From the IMG/VR virus record IMGVR_UViG_3300009285_002455: 64,000 nt of DNA, one strand, 5' to 3'. A model generated the notes under the pieces. The model had not been told where the DNA came from, did no database searches, and saw only the letters and a list, made by a program, of their open reading frames with translations. The stretch comes from a virus. Both the position numbers and the translations under genes were made by a program. How positions within the stretch are numbered: the stretch's first letter is position 1; every line of letters begins with the position of its first letter. Positions 3,001 to 62,152 of this stretch are shown in pieces.

Positions 3001-6000
3001 AACTGGCTATGCACACAAGTAATGTAGAAAAAGTAAAAGAGTATTTTGAGAAGCCTCAAGAATCTGGTGGTGCACGTGTAGGTGAGGTTAGATCTTATCC
3101 TATCAAAGTTCTGGATCAGACTGGGCAGGTTGTTCGTAATGTTGTGGTGGACTTTGCTAAGTATGGTAAATCACTAAGTGACATAACAATAAAAGAAAGA
3201 GATTTAGCCTCCGCTATGCAAGGATCTAATAGCGGATTTAGAGGTGCAATAGGGCGTGCTGTTAAATGGGGTGCTGCTTCTACCGTAGTGTACGGAGGTT
3301 TTGCGCAACTCAAACAAGCTATTAGTACCTTAGCTGAAATAGAGTATAGTTTAGCCACACTTAAAATGATGTTAAATCCTCTGTCTTCTGATATAAATGG
3401 TTTATCAGCGGCCGCGGTTACCTTCGCCAAACAATATGGTGTTGGTATAACAGATGTATTACAATCTATGAATGTTTTTGCACAGCAAGGTTTAACACAA
3501 GCAGAAATAATAGATAGAACTAAGGTATCTACCTTAGCTGCTAATGTTACTACATTAAAAGCATCAGAAGCTACTGAAGCTTTAACATCAGCCATGAAAA
3601 TTTACCAAGAAGAAGGTAATAGTGCTATGCGCTTTTTAGATGCTTGGAGTGAGGTTGAAGCCAAGAGCGCTATTACTGCTGGTGACTTAGCCAATGCTAT
3701 TCAAAAGTCCGCCTCGGCAGCCAAAATTGCTGGTGTTACTTTTGATCAATTAAATGGTATTGTTGCCGCTATCGGTTCAACTACAAGACAATCAGGTAAA
3801 GAAGTAGGTACTTCTCTTAGATTTATTTTACGTAGACTTTCTGCCGAAAAAGGGCCAGAGCAGCTGGGTAAATTAGGTATTCCTGTCATGGAATCTACTG
3901 GACAGTTAAGATCTGGTTTTAGTGTTTTAGATGATCTAAGCAAAAAATGGAAAGACCTTAGTAACGCCCAAAAATTGGCTACCTCCCAAGCACTTGGTGG
4001 TACCAGACAATATAACTCTCTCATAGCTTTAATGGATAACTGGGATCAAGCTTTACGTGCCACCAAAGAGAGTATGAATTCCAAAGGCTCCGCAGAAAGA
4101 CGTAATGCTGAATTAATGGGTACTTATAGAAAACAGCTCGAACAAACCAAAGTTGCTTTAGTAGAACTACAGATGTCTATCGGTAAAGTAGCTTTGCCGG
4201 CATTTAAAATAGGTTTAAGTGGAGTTAAAACATTTTTAGAAACACTGTCTGCTATACCTGATCCTATCAAAGCGGCCGGCGCTGCTTTTGTGGCCTTACT
4301 GACCTATATGACTAAGGGACAGCAACTAGCCGAATCCTTAGGTGACATGCTTGCTGGAGGTAAGGACTTTCTAGGTATATCTGGGGCCGGAGAACAATTT
4401 ACTAAAGAGTTAGCTAAAACTAAATATGAATTATTTGGTTTAGGCGGCGGTAAATTAGCCACTGCCGGTCTTAAAACATTAGGTAAATTTACTACTACGG
4501 ATGCTAGTGGCGGAAAGACTGACGTAACCAGAGGGACTAAATTATCAGATTTTCATTCCTCTTTTGGCAGGTTGTCCTTTAAACTACAAGAAGTAGGTAA
4601 AGTATTTAATAGTTTTGTTGCTGATAGTGTTTCTACCACAGGTAAAGGAATAGCCTCATTCGGGGCTGCCGGAAAAACAGTAGGGACTAAACTTAGTAGT
4701 ACCGCTGGTATAGGGGAGACTATTGAAACTATTAGAAAACGTAATAGTATGACCAAAGAAGACATAGAAAAAACAGTTAAAGAGCTGGGTATACATCAAG
4801 CACTAAAGAAATTAGTTTCTGGTGGTTTGGCCATGGGCGCCGAAGTAGCTGGTATGGGTTCCTATTTAGGAGGTATGGCTGTAAAAGGTTTTGGTGATTC
4901 ACTCGGTGATATAGGCAAAAAGTTAACTGAAAATTTAGCTACGGACGATACTTCCTTTATAGCCGCGGTTGCCCCATTACTAACCACAATAGCAGCATTA
5001 GTACCGGCAATAAAAGTACTAGGGGATCAATATGGTAGGATGACTCAATCTGCACAAGATTACGCAAATGCTATGTATAGTATGCGTAGTATTCAAGAAG
5101 ATAATCTTACTAATATTAAAAATATGGCGGCTTCCTATGATGTTTTACAAAGCAAAATAGAGGATTTAAATAAATTAAATGATCCCGCCACCAAAGAACG
5201 TAGAAAATCTTTAAACACTTATGAAGCTCCTATAATTACATTAGGTAGAGCACAAGAAGATGTAATAAGTTTAGCAAATCAATTAGCAGAATCTAATAGT
5301 AACCTGGTGTTAGGTTATGATAAAGTAGGCAATGCGGTGCTTAAAGCCAGCACTAATTTTGACGAGTATTTTAAAGTACTGGATAAATCCAGAACTAAAC
5401 AACTGGCGGAATCGGAAGTAGACGTGGCTTCCAAATTTATAGAGGATTTAACCAAAACAGGTGGGTCTGAAAACACTAAAAAAATGATTAAAGATATAGC
5501 GAGTGAGGTGCCTATTATAGGAGAAATGCTTGCTAAGGGTATTAAAGTGGCCCCCGCCAAAGCTATTGCTGAAGTAACCGCACAGTTAAACAATTTGCTA
5601 TCAATAAAAGCAAAATCGCCTATGTCTTCTGCTGTGGATAAAGATATTAAAAAATATCAAGAGACATTAAAGGCGCTTAGAAATGATTACGCGGCTACTT
5701 ATAAGGAATTTAGTAATGTATTAGGCAACATTAATACTAAGGGATTAGATCCAAATGAGATTGCTAAAATATTTGCTGACCCCAGATTAAAAGAAGGGTA
5801 TGATGTTATACTTAACATGGAACCCAGACTAAATATAGCCGGCCTTAAAGGTAAAATTAATTGGCAGGATGTTTTAGGGCAAACTGTTATGCAGCGTGCC
5901 CTGCCCTCTGCTAAATCATTAGATTTTACAAAAGAATTAACTAAGGGTAAATTAGAGTCCGCAGGTCTTTTTGAACGCCAAGGTAAAGTGCTTAATAACG

Positions 6001-20060: not shown

Positions 20061-20393
20061 ATGCCAGGATGCACTGTATGCTTAACATTTAGTGGTACCG
20101 CACAAGAATTGTGGGAAGTAACTCATGGTACCACTGCTTATGGCAATTTACCACAGTATAAAAAAGACCAACATGTAGGTAATAAATGGAACCCTTGTCC
20201 ATACTCTACACAAAGTGACGACTTACGTAGTGCTCATAGGCTGGGTATTGTACCCACTAAGGTAGACCACACTGACGATGCTGGTAAAGTATACTACATG
20301 TCTCCAGATAGAAGAAATTCCTGGGGCTATGCGTGTACTTTCGATAATTGCCCATATTTACTAACTAACGGAAGAAGCTATTTTTATAAGTGA
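20061..20393 (+). CDS. hypothetical protein (Cys-containing)
   Basis: AGAGG RBS, 110 aa, N-terminal CxxC. Confidence 0.55.
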   Translation: MPGCTVCLTFSGTAQELWEVTHGTTAYGNLPQYKKDQHVGNKWNPCPYSTQSDDLRSAHRLGIVPTKVDHTDDAGKVYYMSPDRRNSWGYACTFDNCPYLLTNGRSYFYK

Positions 20394-20398
20394 TTACT

Positions 20399-21289
20399 AT
20401 GCCTAAAAAAATAGAATATTGTTTTGTGCGTAATAATTTTGAAGTTGAGGGATATATACTTATAGATAAGACATATATAAATGCTAAAACCAAGATGCAT
20501 TACATATGTCCTTTTGGGCATAAAAATAGTATTACCTGGGGAAATTGGGTTACTGGATATAGATGCCCAGACTGTGCACATAACGCTCCAGTTGCTTTTA
20601 AAGAAGTAAAGAAATCTTTTGAGCAAGCGGGCTACCAACTACTTACAAAAACATATATTAATGCTAAACAAAAATTACTTTTTATATGTAACAACGGGCA
20701 TACCTATTCCATGACTTGGGATCGTTGGAAGCAAGGGCATAGATGCAGAATCTGCGGCGGAACTTGGAAAGAGGGTATTGGAAAAATACGTTTACCTTTA
20801 TATAGCACTTATATGAAAAGGCTAGCTCCTTTTCATGAAATAAAGGAAGTGACTCACGAGGCTGGATTTATCTTATTAGGTGTACATTGCGAGTATTGCA
20901 ATAAAGTAACTGTACCTAATATAGATGAAATAAATCATAGATTGGGTTGCTTAGAAGGGACCAGGCTAGGGGACCAGCGATTTTACTGCTCAGAACAATG
21001 CAAAAATGCTTGTTCTATATATAAGCAGCATACATACCCAAAAGGATTTAAGCCAGCTACTTCCCGTGAAGTACAACCGGCACTAAGAAAATTAGTACTA
21101 GAAAGAGACAACTGGACATGCCAAAAATGCGGAAAAACTGAGGTTGAATTACACTGTCACCACATCGACCCTGTAATCAACAACCCCATAGAATCTGCCG
21201 ATGTTGCTAACTGCATAACATTTTGTAAAGACTGCCATAAAAAAGCACATAAACTGCCTGGCTGTAATTATTCAGAGTTAAAGTGTTGA
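20399..21289 (+). CDS. free-standing HNH homing-type endonuclease with N-terminal Zn-ribbon repeats
   Basis: C-terminal RDNWTCQKCG...LHCHHIDPV...NCITFCKDCHKKAH. Two N-terminal repeats F-x3-GY-x5-YINAK-K-x3-C-x2-GH...RC-x2-C. ATG 20399 preferred over GTG 20390. Confidence 0.88.
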   Translation: MPKKIEYCFVRNNFEVEGYILIDKTYINAKTKMHYICPFGHKNSITWGNWVTGYRCPDCAHNAPVAFKEVKKSFEQAGYQLLTKTYINAKQKLLFICNNGHTYSMTWDRWKQGHRCRICGGTWKEGIGKIRLPLYSTYMKRLAPFHEIKEVTHEAGFILLGVHCEYCNKVTVPNIDEINHRLGCLEGTRLGDQRFYCSEQCKNACSIYKQHTYPKGFKPATSREVQPALRKLVLERDNWTCQKCGKTEVELHCHHIDPVINNPIESADVANCITFCKDCHKKAHKLPGCNYSELKC

Positions 21290-56827: not shown

Positions 56828-57226
56828 ATGGTAAATAGATTAGATGTAGATCCCATATCTTTGGTAGATTGGGCGGTAGAATCAAAACAAGTGGGTACGC
56901 CTACAATAGCTTTATTACCGGCAAGAAATTACTATTTCAAAGTTTATGGTAAGCATAAAATAACCATACCACGTAAAGGCAGTTATTATGAATTAGCACC
57001 AGATTTTTTTTCTGAATCTGATGGGGAATTTAATTTATTGGATGAAAAAAACGCTGTTATGTATCTACCAGCGATATCAAAAGTCCTTTTTGCTACGGCA
57101 CAATATCCCGATCTAAAAGAAGGTGAATTGTTTGCGCCAATAGCTTTAAAATTTAATGAGAGCACCGTGGATATTTATGGGCAAATTATCAGTATGTTAG
57201 CACCTACAGGAGGGGATCAATTATGA
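56828..57226 (+). CDS. hypothetical protein
   Basis: AAGGAG RBS, 132 aa. Confidence 0.6.
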   Translation: MVNRLDVDPISLVDWAVESKQVGTPTIALLPARNYYFKVYGKHKITIPRKGSYYELAPDFFSESDGEFNLLDEKNAVMYLPAISKVLFATAQYPDLKEGELFAPIALKFNESTVDIYGQIISMLAPTGGDQL

Positions 57227-57591
57227 GTTGTGTTAAATGCAATTATACAGGAGAAACAGTTTTTTTTAAAGAGGAGTATCCGTGTAAATGTGGTGATACT
57301 GTTATTGTTGACTACAATATATGTCCGGAATGTGGTAGTTTCTGGCGTAATTGCGGCGACACTCTTTTAGATGAGGTTGACATTATTGCTGATGTCGAAT
57401 TAAGAGACATGATGCTGGCAATAGAAGGTATTGAAACCCTTTTAGGATTAGATGAAGATATCCCAACCAACACCATGGCGGATTGTATAACTCGTTGTGT
57501 AAAATGTAATTCTGTTTCTTATAAAATGACTGAAAATAAATATAAATGTCCTGTTTGCTCTACTGAATGGGAGGTATTAGCAGGTGTCTAA
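57223..57591 (+). CDS. Zn-ribbon protein
   Basis: CVKC, CKC, CPEC, CVKC and CPVC motifs; 122 aa. Confidence 0.6.
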
Positions 57592-58333
57592 TCATTACAA
57601 AATATTAGGTGTTTCTAATGGAGCGACTACGGATGAAATTAAAAAAGCCTACCGTAAATTAGCTAAGTTACATCATCCTGATAAGAATCAAAATGACCCC
57701 ACAGCAGAGGAAAATTTTAAGCGTATAAACGAAGCTTATGAGATTTTATCAGATGAAAATAAACGACGTAATTACGACAATTCCCTTAATGGATATACTA
57801 ATGCTTTTGATATGCTGTTTAGAAACGCACGTCCTCAGCCAGACAGGCCTACACAAGGGCAAGATTTAAGATATGTCGTTGATATACCCTTGTATGCTTT
57901 TATATTAGGAGCGGAAAGATCCATACAAGTATCCTACCCTGATCCTTGCCCTGCGTGTAATGGTACAGGGGCCGCTAGTTTTGCTACATGTACTCCTTGT
58001 AATGGGGCTGGGCGTTTAACTAAAATACAAGAAGCTCAAGGTATGAGAATGCATTCAACTACTACATGTAATCACTGCCGTGGTAAAGGTAGAATTATTA
58101 AAGATCAATGTGTAACTTGTGATGGCCTTGGTATGACGATGGTGGATAATGTTGATATCCCTTTTGTTGTACCACCCGGCGCCAAAGATAAAGATATTGT
58201 AAAATTATATGGGCAAGGACCAAAAGGCACTTTTGGAGGGCCTGCTGGCAATATCTTTATTCAGCTGCGGATGAAACTGCCAAGCAAAGAAACGCTGACG
58301 GCAGAACAAGAGGAGGTTCTTAGATCTATATGA
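57584..58333 (+). CDS. dnaJ: DnaJ-like co-chaperone (short)
   Basis: J-domain with HPD motif (HHPDKN) and four CxxCxGxG repeats; one C-terminal domain only (249 aa); GTG start. Confidence 0.9.
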
Positions 58334-58869
58334 ATATACTAAGCTTGGATGTTTCCGCCGCCTCCACTGGTTGGTGTGTATTGCAGGACACAGGTATATA
58401 TTTTGGGGTCATAAAAACAAACGCTAAATTGCAAAATACAGAAAGATTGTTGACATTTAAAACAGAATTGTGTAAAATATTAAAAACGTATAAACCTACA
58501 AACATAGTTATTGAAGACATATTTGTAGGACTTAATGCTTCTACTATAAAAGTGCTTGCTGAATTTGCCGGTGTTGCTAAACTTACATGTAAAGAGGTGG
58601 TTAATATAGTACCATACATAATAAGTACCAATACGGTAAAAGCCTACTATAAAGCTAAAAAGAAAGAAATGATTTTTAATTTTATGCTGGATATTTTAGA
58701 ACAGCATTGGGAATATAAACACTATAATGACATAGTAGATGCCTTAGCACAAGTCATATGCTATACTGATATAGTACTTAATCTTAAAGCATTTAGATTT
58801 ACGGAAGAGTATGGTTATTTTTATAAAATTGAAGATCCTCTTCACAATCATTTAATTCGGGGTGTATAA
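58330..58869 (+). CDS. ruvC: RuvC-like Holliday junction resolvase
   Basis: [25 protein letters not shown] and DIVDALA catalytic pattern. Confidence 0.82.
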
Positions 58870-60029
58870 TGGTAAATAATGAGGGCATTAAAATAAGTGC
58901 TACACGCATAAGTACTTTTTTGCAATGTAAGCAGAAATACTGGTTTAACTATTATGATAAATTACCTAAAATAGATAATCCGGTATTTAAATTAGGTACA
59001 GCTGTTCACATTGCCTTGGAGTTGGCTGGAAATATCTGGCGGGAAAAAGAGAAGTTCACTAAAAAAGATAAAGAAACTATTATTAATAAGTTTAAAGAAG
59101 TCTCTGTAAAAGAAGGAATTGATGATTTTTCCGTACACCAAACAGGTATAGAATTAGTAACTAATAGAATAAATGATTTTATACATGAAGGGCACAAAAT
59201 AATAAGCTTAGAAACTCCCTTTGGTTATAAAGGTGGTGTAGATGTAATCACCAAAGAAGGTGTGCCGTTGTTGGGCGCTATTGATAAAGTATTACAGGTA
59301 GATGAAGACACCATTCTAATTGTGGACTATAAAACATCTAAAACTGCACCTACACCGGATCAACTAAAAACAGACAAACAGTTGTCTATGTATGATTTGG
59401 TAGCCAGTATATTGTGGCCTGGAAAGCGTATTATAGTTAGCCTTGACTTGTTAAAACATGAGATGTTATATTCTTATCGTACACCAGAAGAACGGGCTGC
59501 TTTTTCTGAATATCTTAGATTAGTGTACGATTCCATGCTTTCCTTGAAAGAGCAGGATGTAAAAGCCACAATAAACACATTTTGTCCTTGGTGTGATTTT
59601 AGAGAATATTGTAATGCGTATAAAGAGGCATATACAAATTCGAACGGCAAATTTCAAGAAGCGTATCGTTTAGATAACAGTGCTTTGGTCGATGAGTGGC
59701 AACAAGTTAAAAAGATGAAAAAAATATATGAAATGCGCGAGAAAGAACTATCTTTACTTCTTATGGATCGTATAAAAACTACTGGTATAAATGTACAAGT
59801 AGACGACAAAGAAGTTTATGTTAGACAAAATAGTAGAGCAACTTACGATATTAGCGCGGTTAAACAAATAGTACCACAAGAGTATCTATTGAATATGGTA
59901 TCTTTAAATAAATCAGATATTGAAAAATATATGGATAAGAACCCCGCAGCCAAGGCTAAAATAGTAGATAGCATGACTGTGAATTTTACAACACCTTTTT
60001 TAGATGTACGTAAAATAAAAAATAAATGA
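58869..60029 (+). CDS. PD-(D/E)XK exonuclease, RecB/AddB/Cas4-like
   Basis: ISATRISTFLQC, GTAVH, GAIDKV, IVDYKT, QLSMY. The 1+3 Cys staple (QC...CPWCDFREYC) is typical of Fe-S-containing AddB/Cas4 nucleases. Confidence 0.85.
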   Translation: MVNNEGIKISATRISTFLQCKQKYWFNYYDKLPKIDNPVFKLGTAVHIALELAGNIWREKEKFTKKDKETIINKFKEVSVKEGIDDFSVHQTGIELVTNRINDFIHEGHKIISLETPFGYKGGVDVITKEGVPLLGAIDKVLQVDEDTILIVDYKTSKTAPTPDQLKTDKQLSMYDLVASILWPGKRIIVSLDLLKHEMLYSYRTPEERAAFSEYLRLVYDSMLSLKEQDVKATINTFCPWCDFREYCNAYKEAYTNSNGKFQEAYRLDNSALVDEWQQVKKMKKIYEMREKELSLLLMDRIKTTGINVQVDDKEVYVRQNSRATYDISAVKQIVPQEYLLNMVSLNKSDIEKYMDKNPAAKAKIVDSMTVNFTTPFLDVRKIKNK

Positions 60030-60377
60030 AAAGACATACAATTGACTTTATAAAAGCACAGTTTGAAAAGTATGGTTACACACTTATTGATGACATTTAT
60101 ATAAACGCAAGCACTAAATTGTGGTGCCTGGAAAGATAAGATTTATAAAGAATCGATAAAATATAGAGATAATAACGTTTGTAGAAATCCTTACTGTTTT
60201 GGTATAACTAAGGAGTTAACTATCCATCATATAAATTATGACAAGGAGGATTGCAGACCTATTAATTTAATAACTCTATGTAGAAGTTGTAATTCTCGTG
60301 CTAATACTGATAGAATTTGGCACGAGAACTGGTATTCAATTTTAATGCGTAATCGTGGAAGATTACTAAACAATTAA
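60026..60377 (+). pseudogene. degenerate free-standing HNH endonuclease (internal deletion plus frameshift)
   Basis: Frame 1 (60026-60139): MKRHTIDFIKAQFEKYGYTLIDDIYINASTKL..., matching the N-terminal repeat of the 20399 HNH. Frame +1 (60120-60377, no start codon): CGAWKDKIYKESIKYRDNNVCRNPYC...LTIHHINYDK...NLITLCRSCNSRAN. Confidence 0.85.
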
Positions 60378-60386
60378 GGAGTTTCT

Positions 60387-61937
60387 ATGGGAAAAAAGAT
60401 TAAAATTTTATGTTATATGGACACCCCCTCCTGTAAATAATGTGCAGCTTTACATAGCAATATGTACCGAATAACTACGAGAATTCAGGGGAACTCCTAA
60501 CGTCAAGTCGAGGACAATCCTGAGCCAAGCCTCTTTATAGAGGAAGGTGCAACGACTATTCCATATAAGGAAGTACACCCAAGCGGGTGGAAGCACGTAG
60601 CATCCCAAGTGGATGATGATATAGTCTCAACTTGCATGGAAACATGCAGCAGCCCAAGAAGCGGTATAAGAAGTAGCGTTCTTATATGAAGATATTTGGC
60701 AACAGGTTTTGCAACAGTCAGCCGTAATGTTTTAGAAGCGTTGTATAAAACGGGTAGATATGACATCGAAGTGTTGGGTATAAATTACTGGGGAGATCCA
60801 CATGATTTTCCATATAAGATTTGGCCGGTAGGTAATAATGCGGAAAGAGATCCCTACGGTCGTAAAAAGATAGTTAATATGATTCCTAAAATGGATTTTG
60901 ATATTCTATTTTTTATGCAGGACAGTTTTATTTTGGATTTTTTACCTGAGTTGATTCCACATCTTAAAAAGAATAGGGAGACGCCGTTTAAATCCGTGGT
61001 GTATTTTCCCATTGATGGTACACCTAAGCCAGAGTGGATAAAAAATGTTAGTTTCTGTGATGAAGTAATTACTTTCGCTAACTTTGGTAGAAAGCTATGT
61101 CAGGAAACATACCCAATTGTGGGTGATATGTCTGTAATTCCTCATGGGGTTAATATCAATGAATACAAACCATTACCTAAGGATGAAGTAGCTGATTTTA
61201 GAAAACGTTACTTTGGTCGTCATGCTGATAAATTTATTTACATGAACCTAAATAGAAATCAGCAACGTAAGGATATTCCTAGGACTATCCAAGCATTCCA
61301 TGAGTTACGTAAAAAAGAACCAAATACTTTATTATATCTGCATATGGCTAAACAAGATCAGGGATGGAATCTGCCAGAAGTATGTAGAGCGTATGATTTT
61401 AGTTTAACCGATGACGTCATATTTCCTCAAAATTTTGGGCCTAATCAAGGCTATCCGAGAGAAATAGTTAATATGCTGTATAACTGTGTTGATTGCGTTG
61501 TTAGCGCAAGTCTTGGTGAAGGGTGGGGGCTTTCATGGATAGAAGCAATGGCCGCTAAAACACCCGTTATTATGCCCAGAAACACAGCAATGATAGAAAA
61601 TATTACTGAGGATGTGGGCTACCTTGTAAAAAGCGGTACTAACCCCAGTCTATGGACAGTACTTCCTTATGACAACGAAGTAAGACGCCCATTAGTTGAT
61701 GTAGAAGATCTAATCGACAAGATGCTACATGTGTATAATAATTATGAAGAGGCCATGACTAAGGCCGAGCAGGCGTATAAATTTGTTACAGGTACCCTAG
61801 ATTGGCAAACAGCAGTTGGTAATACTTGGGTTAAAACTTTTGACGCTGTATCTAAATCAATGCTTGAACAAAAAAGTAAAGTGGCAGAAATGTTAGCAAC
61901 ACAGACCACCAACGTCATAAACTCAGAAACTTTTTAA
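60387..61937 (+). CDS. GT4-family (GT-B) glycosyltransferase, spliced: exon 1 60387-60434, exon 2 60699-61937 (428 aa)
   Basis: AAGGAG RBS and ATG at 60387 give MGKKIKILCYMDTPSC, which joins in frame to ATGFATVSRNVLEAL. Later motifs VIPHGVN, NRNQQRKDIP and EGWGLSWIEAMA (EX7E). The track's TTG start at 60696 is the last codon of the intron. Confidence 0.88.
60435..60698 (+). ncRNA. group I self-splicing intron (IA2-like, ORF-less, 264 nt)
   Basis: 5' exon ends in U and intron ends in G. P1 CUGU/GCAG with U.G pair; P2 TACATA-GCAA-TATGTA; P3 CTACG/CGTAG; P element GAATTCAGGGGAA; Q AATCCTGAGC; R GGTGCAACGACTA; S ATGATATAGTCT; P7.1, P7.2 and P8 hairpins; P9 TGCATG-GAAA-CATGCA; P9.2 TATAAGAA/TTCTTATA. 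Confidence 0.93.
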
Positions 61938-61941
61938 TAAC

Positions 61942-61965
61942 AAAGAGGGGCTTAGTCCCCTTTTT
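61942..61965 (+). terminator. probable Rho-independent terminator
   Basis: AAAGAGGGG-CTTAGT-CCCCTTTTT immediately after the glycosyltransferase stop. Confidence 0.65.
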
Positions 61966-61990
61966 GCTGCTTAGCTATAAGGATAGTAAA

Positions 61991-62152
61991 ATGGAAGAAA
62001 TGCTTATACTTAAACCGGAGCAAGTACAAATTGATGAAAAAGAAATAGAAGAAGCATATAGCAACACAACCGTAGAGTACGCGTGTGATCTTTGTAAAAG
62101 ACTATATTCTAAAAGTTTAAAATTTTGCCCATTCTGTGGTTTTGGTGGATAG
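61991..62152 (+). CDS. small Zn-ribbon protein
   Basis: AAGGA RBS then ATG 61991. CDLC...CPFC motif, 53 aa. Confidence 0.55.
   Translation: MEEMLILKPEQVQIDEKEIEEAYSNTTVEYACDLCKRLYSKSLKFCPFCGFGG

Follow-up and report, generated by a model that had tools for sequence, protein, structure and literature searches.

The DNA analysed here, referred to below as the window, is a stretch of 64,000 nucleotides (nt) taken from a 104-kb IMG/VR virus record (IMGVR_UViG_3300009285_002455) of an uncultured groundwater phage. By CheckV the record is 39% complete, so that the source phage is probably larger than 200 kb. On the + strand the window carries, in this order, genes for DnaJ, RuvC and a PD-(D/E)XK exonuclease, the remnant of a free-standing HNH homing endonuclease gene, a gene for a GT4-family glycosyltransferase (GT) and one for ThyX. 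The GT gene is split by a group I intron devoid of any sizeable open reading frame (ORF), and the HNH remnant ends just upstream of this gene. An intact version of the same arrangement is present in a related phage, hereafter the sister. In our reading the HNH gene, whose product carried CapR-type DNA-binding repeats, was probably the past mobility engine of the ORF-less intron and was broken recently. The features concerned are the following:

60026-60139, + strand: stub of the homing endonuclease gene, 37 codons, half a CapR-type repeat (...FEKYGYTLIDDIYINASTKL); from the ORF and its protein matches
60118-60120, + strand: deletion/frameshift junction, where homology to the sister resumes
60120-60377, + strand: remnant of the HNH catalytic domain, 85 codons and stop; from Pfam/PHROG, corresponds to residues 145-229 of the sister enzyme
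60376-60381, + strand: ribosome-binding site of the GT gene (AAGGAG), overlapping the HNH stop; read from the sequence, conserved in the sister
60387-60434, + strand: GT exon 1, 16 codons, MGKKIKILCYMDTPSC, with its ATG at 60387; from the alignment with uninterrupted homologs
60435-60698, + strand: group I intron, ORF-less, 264 nt (3 x 88); RF00028, last base G60698
60699-61937, + strand: GT exon 2, 412 codons and stop, GT4 family; Pfam Glycos_transf_1, phrog_2170

The intron and the split GT gene

A match to the Rfam family RF00028 covers positions 60425-60649 (83 bits for a gathering score of 50, E between 1e-19 and 1e-21, model positions 1-253); it is the only group I intron that Rfam reports in the whole window. 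The two exons share the same frame and exon 2 begins with ATGFATVSRN. The spliced GT start, MGKKIKILCYMDTPSC/ATGFATVSRN, aligns without gap with the ...KIKVLAYCDSPTC/ATGFGTVSRN of about 158 uninterrupted homologs, which fixes both splice sites. The rules of splicing are satisfied at these sites: a U precedes the 5' splice site, a G ends the intron and the reading frame is restored. The U in question, the last base of exon 1 (U60434), would make the U.G pair of P1. The GT itself matches PF00534 (Glycos_transf_1, 48 bits for a gathering score of 26.4, 1e-12) and phrog_2170 (6e-48).

Between P7 and P3' are two short hairpins (columns 135-148 and 152-165 of the structure alignment), i.e. at the position of P7.1/P7.2, which typify the phage introns of subgroup IA, and a P9.1-type hairpin is found on the 3' side of the intron. 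Across about 200 nt the core shares 71-78% identity with introns of Staphylococcus and Aeromonas phages. As stated in an earlier note made from the sequence of the window (the original prediction), the intron has no endonuclease of its own: no + strand ORF of 30 amino acids (aa) or more is found inside its 264 nt. Between the introns of the window and the sister there are 4 compensatory base-pair changes and 0 broken pairs, which is consistent with a continued splicing function, with the modest support that a comparison of two sequences can give; the intron still looks able to splice. A search for RNA runs containing this stretch found none. Of the strongly conserved blocks of the GT gene, the first contains the insertion site, which is thus a natural target for introns and endonucleases alike.

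The HNH remnant and the deletion

One CapR-type repeat begins in the stub but only its first half is encoded, after which the ORF continues out of frame to a TAA. The catalytic domain is read in the frame next to that of the stub, which is open from 60105 to the stop at 60375-60377 and contains no ATG, GTG or TTG start codon. The enzyme of the window is thus predicted to be dead. Matches of the remnant to Pfam are weak (HNH_3, 9e-5; HNH, 7e-4; both just under their gathering scores), those to the HNH families of PHROG being at about 5e-8, and the catalytic residues are kept, with both Cys pairs and the HH...N...N residues in place (CRNPxC...HH...N...CRSCN). From the HNH stop (60377) to the insertion site (60434) there are 57 nt. 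The original prediction had correctly placed the end of the remnant, the insertion site (60434/60435), the spacing between them and the string AAATTGTGGT (60116-60125). Its description of a decayed free-standing HNH homing endonuclease also agrees with our findings, namely a stub, an out-of-frame catalytic domain deprived of a start codon, and an intact 229-aa ortholog in the sister.

Collinearity with the sister (blastn) is interrupted at 60025/60118, where the window has 92 nt and the sister 432 nt. The HNH gene of the window is 338 nt shorter than that of the sister, i.e. 2 modulo 3, hence the frameshift. All the zinc-ligand halves of the CapR repeats lie in the lost segment; what remains is half a repeat, out of frame, and no intact CapR repeat is fused in frame to the nuclease domain of this gene. 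When the deletion is modelled on the sister sequence, its junction would have a microhomology of 3 nt (ATT), a suggestion that depends on this use of the sister in place of the window's own ancestor. The best protein matches of the stub are CapR repeats of the HNH genes found at the same junction in other phages (62% to repeat 2 of the L005 enzyme); the identity with the CapR repeats of the sister is merely 39-55% at the protein level.

The original prediction had also proposed to check reads for the deletion, and it is indeed present in further, independent assemblies. In Logan contigs from three runs the region 59700-61000 is each time in one piece, with 0 differences from the window, and at 60118 there are neither loose ends nor alternative joints. 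Each run is from a different coded study (2014-2016, groundwater and soil); a single campaign may lie behind them, or the samples may include those from which the window came. They rule out a one-off misassembly and are not evidence of fixation in the whole population. Another run (X19, sediment, 2020) contains no more of the region than two pieces of 151 nt from the flanking genes, at depth 2, and is silent on the locus.

The sister phage and the age of the break

A 234-kb contig of IMG/VR, on which the loci L002 and L189 lie, represents the sister; it runs collinear with the window, with an nt identity of 82-85%. Its exonuclease-GT junction carries, at L002:2990-3679, an intact ORF of 229 aa with two CapR homology domains (PF21817, 7e-6) and an HNH domain, and its GT gene has the same intron at the same site (RF00028, 83.5 bits). 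The HNH remnant is 86.5% identical in nt and 87% in aa to residues 145-229 of this intact enzyme, and the two GTs are 90% identical in aa. The nt identities and the ratios of non-synonymous to synonymous substitution rates (dN/dS) between the window and the sister are:

Exonuclease: 84% identity, dN/dS 0.031
HNH 3' part: 86.5% identity, dN/dS 0.061 (24 synonymous and 11 non-synonymous changes)
Intron: 90% identity, dN/dS not applicable
GT: 84% identity, dN/dS 0.048

Identity is even across the region, which indicates that the HNH gene and the intron were already paired in the common ancestor and were inherited vertically, without recent transfer. The divergence between the two phages corresponds to a dS of about 0.9-1.4, and a neutral window branch would be expected to give a dN/dS near 0.5. 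The value of 0.06 observed for the remnant argues that the HNH gene was broken very recently in the window lineage; by estimate, constraint was absent along only a few percent of the window branch, about 12% at the most. "Caught in decay", the expression of the original prediction, thus seems apt for a deletion that is both out of frame and recent. Until then the HNH gene was long held by strong purifying selection; since the nuclease is a selfish one, this implies that it kept homing into empty genomes.

The exonuclease-GT junction in related phages

GT homologs were collected from 80 IMG/VR and 80 metagenome loci (47-67% aa identity). The insertion site is uninterrupted in every surveyed GT locus except the sister, so that the intron is confined to one lineage. 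Neither a further intron-bearing allele nor a relative closer than the sister was found among these loci, and an exact 31-nt pattern of the intron core, searched across IMG/VR, matched the sister contig alone. Both kinds of relatives that had been suggested for examination, with an intact HNH gene or with an intron-less GT gene, therefore exist: the former is the sister, the latter are the carriers of the uninterrupted GT genes mentioned above.

The exonuclease and GT genes are syntenic in nearly all relatives, with a gap of 2-70 nt between them in most loci. The junction could be read in 121 distinct alleles. In 17 of these it holds an insert of more than 400 nt, a distribution that takes at least 15 state changes on the GT tree. 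The inserts are of several kinds:

CapR-HNH: L052, L067, L073, L075, L159, L169 and L188, together with the sister and the window
CapR with a Vsr/MTES_1575-like nuclease, some with a Mom-family domain: L043, L032, L050/L084 and L103
Unrelated HNH: L069
Non-nuclease inserts, not counted as endonucleases: L132 (aminotransferase) and L034 (144 aa, no family)

Nuclease genes lie at this junction in at least 13 intron-less lineages, 7 of which have a CapR-HNH gene. In this group of uncultured large phages, the exonuclease-GT junction is a hot spot for homing endonuclease genes. At least 164 uncharacterised metagenome proteins belong to the CapR-HNH family. The two closest homologs of the sister HNH (P0011, 62%, and P0044, 58%) are both at the exonuclease-GT junction, beside an uninterrupted GT gene, while a third (58%) is located away from it. 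The pattern is nested: the intron is found solely where a nuclease gene is present (2 of 2 alleles), and the nuclease gene is often found without the intron. As regards the co-occurrence that the original prediction suggested as a check, both intron alleles have the HNH gene, but these two alleles represent one lineage, and many nuclease-bearing lineages are intron-less.

Several of these junctions have features of their own. ORFs of about 530-560 aa (L032:1826-3427, L050:1821-3419 and L103:1759-3444) combine CapR repeats, a Vsr/MTES_1575-like nuclease and a C-terminal domain of the Mom family (DNA modification), a fusion that is unusual for a gene resembling those of homing endonucleases. L132:2141-3349 is a class-III aminotransferase gene (Pfam 2e-126) without nuclease, and the junction thus takes cargo genes too. 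The loci L087-L106 belong to a more distant GT clade (about 50% aa identity). At about 3150-3450 their exonuclease and GT genes are separated by a short conserved ORF (70-97 aa) without known family, which is probably native to the clade rather than a mobile insert.

A related phage is also present in the samples of runs X9 and X13, on a 44-kb contig that is more abundant than the window (depth 133 versus 22). This contig matches 60386-60404 and 60780-60815 of the window with a spacing shorter by 264 nt, hence a GT gene without intron. The phage is a potential natural recipient; its upstream flank is unlike the HNH 3' end.

Possible links between the enzyme and the insertion site

A conserved Gly, encoded by the fifth codon after the insertion site (13-15 nt downstream), is replaced in 5 of 9 HNH-bearing alleles and in 10 of 104 alleles without nuclease (Fisher p = 0.002). 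The position was picked from the 30 tested, and on phylogenetically independent pairs p rises to about 0.25. The enrichment is thus lost after accounting for phylogeny and multiple testing, and we retain it as a lead and not as a signal. The sister carries the consensus Gly. A sequence search of the PDB with the intact sister HNH returned zero matches.

Surrounding genes

The neighbours upstream of the HNH remnant are:

57584-58333, + strand: DnaJ gene
58330-58869, + strand: RuvC gene
58869-60029, + strand: PD-(D/E)XK exonuclease gene, the conserved upstream neighbour; Pfam PDDEXK_1 (1e-25), phrog_69

The exonuclease stop and the first codon of the HNH stub share an ATGA. Against GenBank phages, megablast of 58800-62000 gave zero matches; the lineage has no cultured relative and the top match of its GT is at 38% aa identity. 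The DnaJ-RuvC-exonuclease-GT block is flanked by small Cys-rich ORFs that resemble zinc ribbons (57223-57591 and 61964-62152), the first having counterparts upstream of DnaJ in several relatives, e.g. L004, L005 and L010. A second endonuclease gene with two CapR repeats and an HNH domain, this one intact, is located at 20390-21289 of the window (+ strand, 299 aa, Pfam HNH 1e-6). The sister genome and other relatives have at least 3 CapR-HNH paralogs, at differing sites.

Proposed history of the locus

The common ancestor of the window and sister phages had a GT gene with the ORF-less intron, 57 nt downstream of the HNH gene. The pair was then inherited vertically, the HNH gene being held by strong purifying selection, which implies continued homing into empty genomes. 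A break made by the HNH enzyme near the junction and repaired from the donor genome would have co-converted the intron with the nuclease gene. The HNH would thus most likely have been the mobility engine of the intron, either by collaborative homing proper (cut at the insertion site) or by trans homing (cut nearby). Very recently, in the window lineage, an out-of-frame deletion of 338-340 nt removed all the zinc-binding parts of the CapR repeats and left the catalytic domain without a start. The intron has outlived the nuclease, stranded in the conserved GT gene, presumably because the GT needs it spliced out and precise intron loss is rare. Co-mobilisation is plausible because the intron lies within the range of co-conversion and would be carried by an active HNH under either variant. 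Since enzymes of this type are tolerated by genomes without the intron, the strict collaborative variant does not appear to be required.

Several observations nevertheless weigh against this history. The association of the intron with the HNH gene is a single evolutionary event, as the two intron alleles form one lineage; with about 13% of the alleles occupied, a single gain in an occupied genome has a chance of about 0.13 and is not significant. The presence of CapR-HNH genes at the same junction in intron-less lineages points to other means of protecting the genome, and the HNH would need the intron neither for homing nor for this protection. Among the HNH-bearing loci no signature of co-conversion, i.e. 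flanks more alike than gene bodies, was found, all of them being old and diverged. The original prediction that the HNH "lost its middle" is right in that the gene is 338 nt shorter and out of frame, but it is too simple, because the 92-nt stub has zero similarity at the nt level to the sister repeats or to any other sequence compared. This suggests that the DNA-binding module had already diverged or been swapped, before the deletion or together with it, and the enzymes of the window and the sister may have had different specificities. Lastly, a dN/dS of 0.06 would also fit a remnant that is still in use.

Two readings differ from ours on the relation between the HNH gene and the intron. The one closest to the original prediction is strict collaborative homing, in which the HNH cuts the intron-less GT gene at 60434/60435, the intron interrupts this site and so protects the genome that carries it, and the two elements depend on each other. 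Its anatomical part stands, an endonuclease gene adjoining an ORF-less intron in the same layout in the sister, and the distance of just 57 nt, the exclusive presence of the intron with the HNH gene (2 of 2 alleles), the position of the site in the first strongly conserved GT block and the precedent of F-CphI and the psbA intron of S-PM2 (as cited in PMC6083498) all speak for it. The replaced Gly (5 of 9 versus 10 of 104) would be a weak hint in the same direction, but it fails on independent pairs and comes from 1 of 30 positions, and the sister has the consensus Gly. The 7 intron-less lineages with CapR-HNH at the junction, including the closest homologs, point to protection without intron, so that we consider the strict form unlikely. 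Alternatively, the two elements would be coincidental neighbours: the junction would be a landing pad, the intron would have arrived independently, by reverse splicing or with an endonuclease ORF of its own that was later purged (homing endonuclease gene, or HEG, turnover), and the HNH would never have mobilised it. The frequency of junction nucleases without intron (at least 13 lineages, 15 changes of state), the single gain of the intron, the similarity of its core to widespread phage introns and the HEG turnover proposed for the analogous ICP1 terminase locus (PMC10448857) are all in line with such a coincidence. However, the 264-nt intron contains no ORF remnant, and 57 nt would fall within any realistic co-conversion tract, so that an active HNH would carry the intron however it had arrived (judging from PMC2790892). 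We regard coincidence as possible, yet doubtful.

Two other readings concern the state of the remnant. The catalytic domain could still be made, and serve some function, if ribosomes shifted by +1 within the overlap 60105-60136 or re-initiated at a non-canonical start, e.g. the ATT at 60141. Its low dN/dS, its 85 codons without internal stop and the conservation of all metal-binding and catalytic residues would agree with this, but a very recent deletion explains the dN/dS equally well, a canonical start codon is absent, no recognisable slippery or shift-prone site was seen on reading the overlap, and with every CapR zinc-finger half gone the product would be without its specific DNA-binding module. 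A remnant still alive is thus very unlikely. The internal repeats of this gene family could in principle have been collapsed during metagenome assembly. But on one side of the junction is a repeat and on the other the catalytic domain, which is not repeated, the microhomology being just about 3 nt, and the IMG/VR contig agrees base for base with the Logan contigs of the three runs, without alternative joints at 60118; we give an assembly artefact almost no credence. Our preferred reading therefore remains that of an HNH gene that mobilised the neighbouring intron before being broken, by a cut that would have been either at the insertion site or nearby.

Comparison with known systems

Introns whose endonuclease is missing or defunct can be mobilised through co-conversion by a neighbouring free-standing endonuclease, with a success that depends on the proximity of the cleavage site to the insertion site (PMC2790892; PMC6083498; PMC10448857). 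In collaborative homing, described for F-CphI and the psbA intron of the cyanophage S-PM2 (Zeng, Bonocora & Shub 2009, as cited in PMC6083498), the site cut is that of the intron; similar arrangements exist in T3/T7-like phages (cited in PMC10448857). In trans homing the neighbouring enzyme cuts nearby and the intron is co-converted, as for MobE of T4 and the nrdB intron with its defunct I-TevIII (PMC2790892). Barth et al. described at the ICP1 locus modular DNA-binding repeats of the CapR type with internal deletions, and considered the turnover of endonuclease genes as an alternative origin (PMC10448857).

The documented pairs of a free-standing endonuclease and an ORF-less intron are few (S-PM2 psbA, T3/T7-like phages, T4 mobE/nrdB and the ICP1 terminase). 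The present locus adds one in a lineage of uncultured large phages, as a further example of the known arrangement of an intron and a neighbouring nuclease, with no new mechanism. Its interest comes mainly from the comparative series available at one junction, with an intact and a freshly broken copy of one enzyme, more than 100 empty sites and at least 12 independent nuclease insertions with two nuclease domains on the same CapR scaffold, and from the simple cleavage assay that the sister enzyme allows. This enzyme and synthetic targets are short enough to be made, so that collaborative and trans homing, as well as the protection of the genome with or without the intron, are directly testable. 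The window itself shows the locus just after the death of the nuclease, with the intron stranded in a conserved gene.

As in S-PM2, a free-standing endonuclease gene lies beside a conserved phage gene that contains an ORF-less group I intron, and intron-less homologs in related phages are potential recipients. In contrast to F-CphI, which has an Endo VII motif, the present enzyme is a CapR-HNH located upstream of the intron-split gene; enzymes of the same kind exist in intron-less genomes, and the gene is broken in the window. Two further traits of the S-PM2 system, a cut at the insertion site and a protective role of the intron, are candidate features for the present locus. As in T4, a neighbouring free-standing enzyme of the HNH family could mobilise a non-autonomous intron by a cut that can fall outside the insertion site, provided that the spacing is close. 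The roles of the dead and the living are however exchanged: in T4 the intron contains the dead endonuclease and the living one is free-standing, whereas here the intron has no ORF and the free-standing gene is predicted to be dead in the window and alive in the sister. The ICP1 locus (PMC10448857) shares with the present one CapR-type zinc-finger repeats as the modular DNA-binding part of free-standing phage endonucleases, a variable number of repeats with deletions and recombination inside them, and a nuclease gene that adjoins an intron-split essential gene. The nuclease domain is nevertheless HNH here (Vsr/MTES_1575-like in relatives with the same junction) and not T5orf172, the host gene is that of a glycosyltransferase, and the phages, from groundwater and sediment, have not been cultured.

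Speculatively, and with less expectation that all its steps hold than for the readings of the single locus that we called unlikely or doubtful, the junction may offer a natural series of the birth and death of a mobile intron. The site would be empty, then occupied by a CapR-nuclease with the genome protected by a Gly-to-Ser/Ala change of the codon 13-15 nt downstream of the future insertion site, then by a nuclease with an ORF-less intron, and finally by a dead nuclease with a stranded intron. The CapR-HNH enzymes would target the region of the insertion site, and CapR modules would have recombined with HNH or Vsr-like domains at one target.

The life cycle of homing endonuclease genes in the model of Goddard and Burt is said to consist of invasion, fixation, degeneration and loss. 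The window resembles the step of degeneration, the sister the functional step and many relatives the empty site. Unlike what this model would lead one to expect, the long purifying selection that appears to have preceded the break (dN/dS 0.06 for a dS of about 0.9) argues against a quick decay after fixation.

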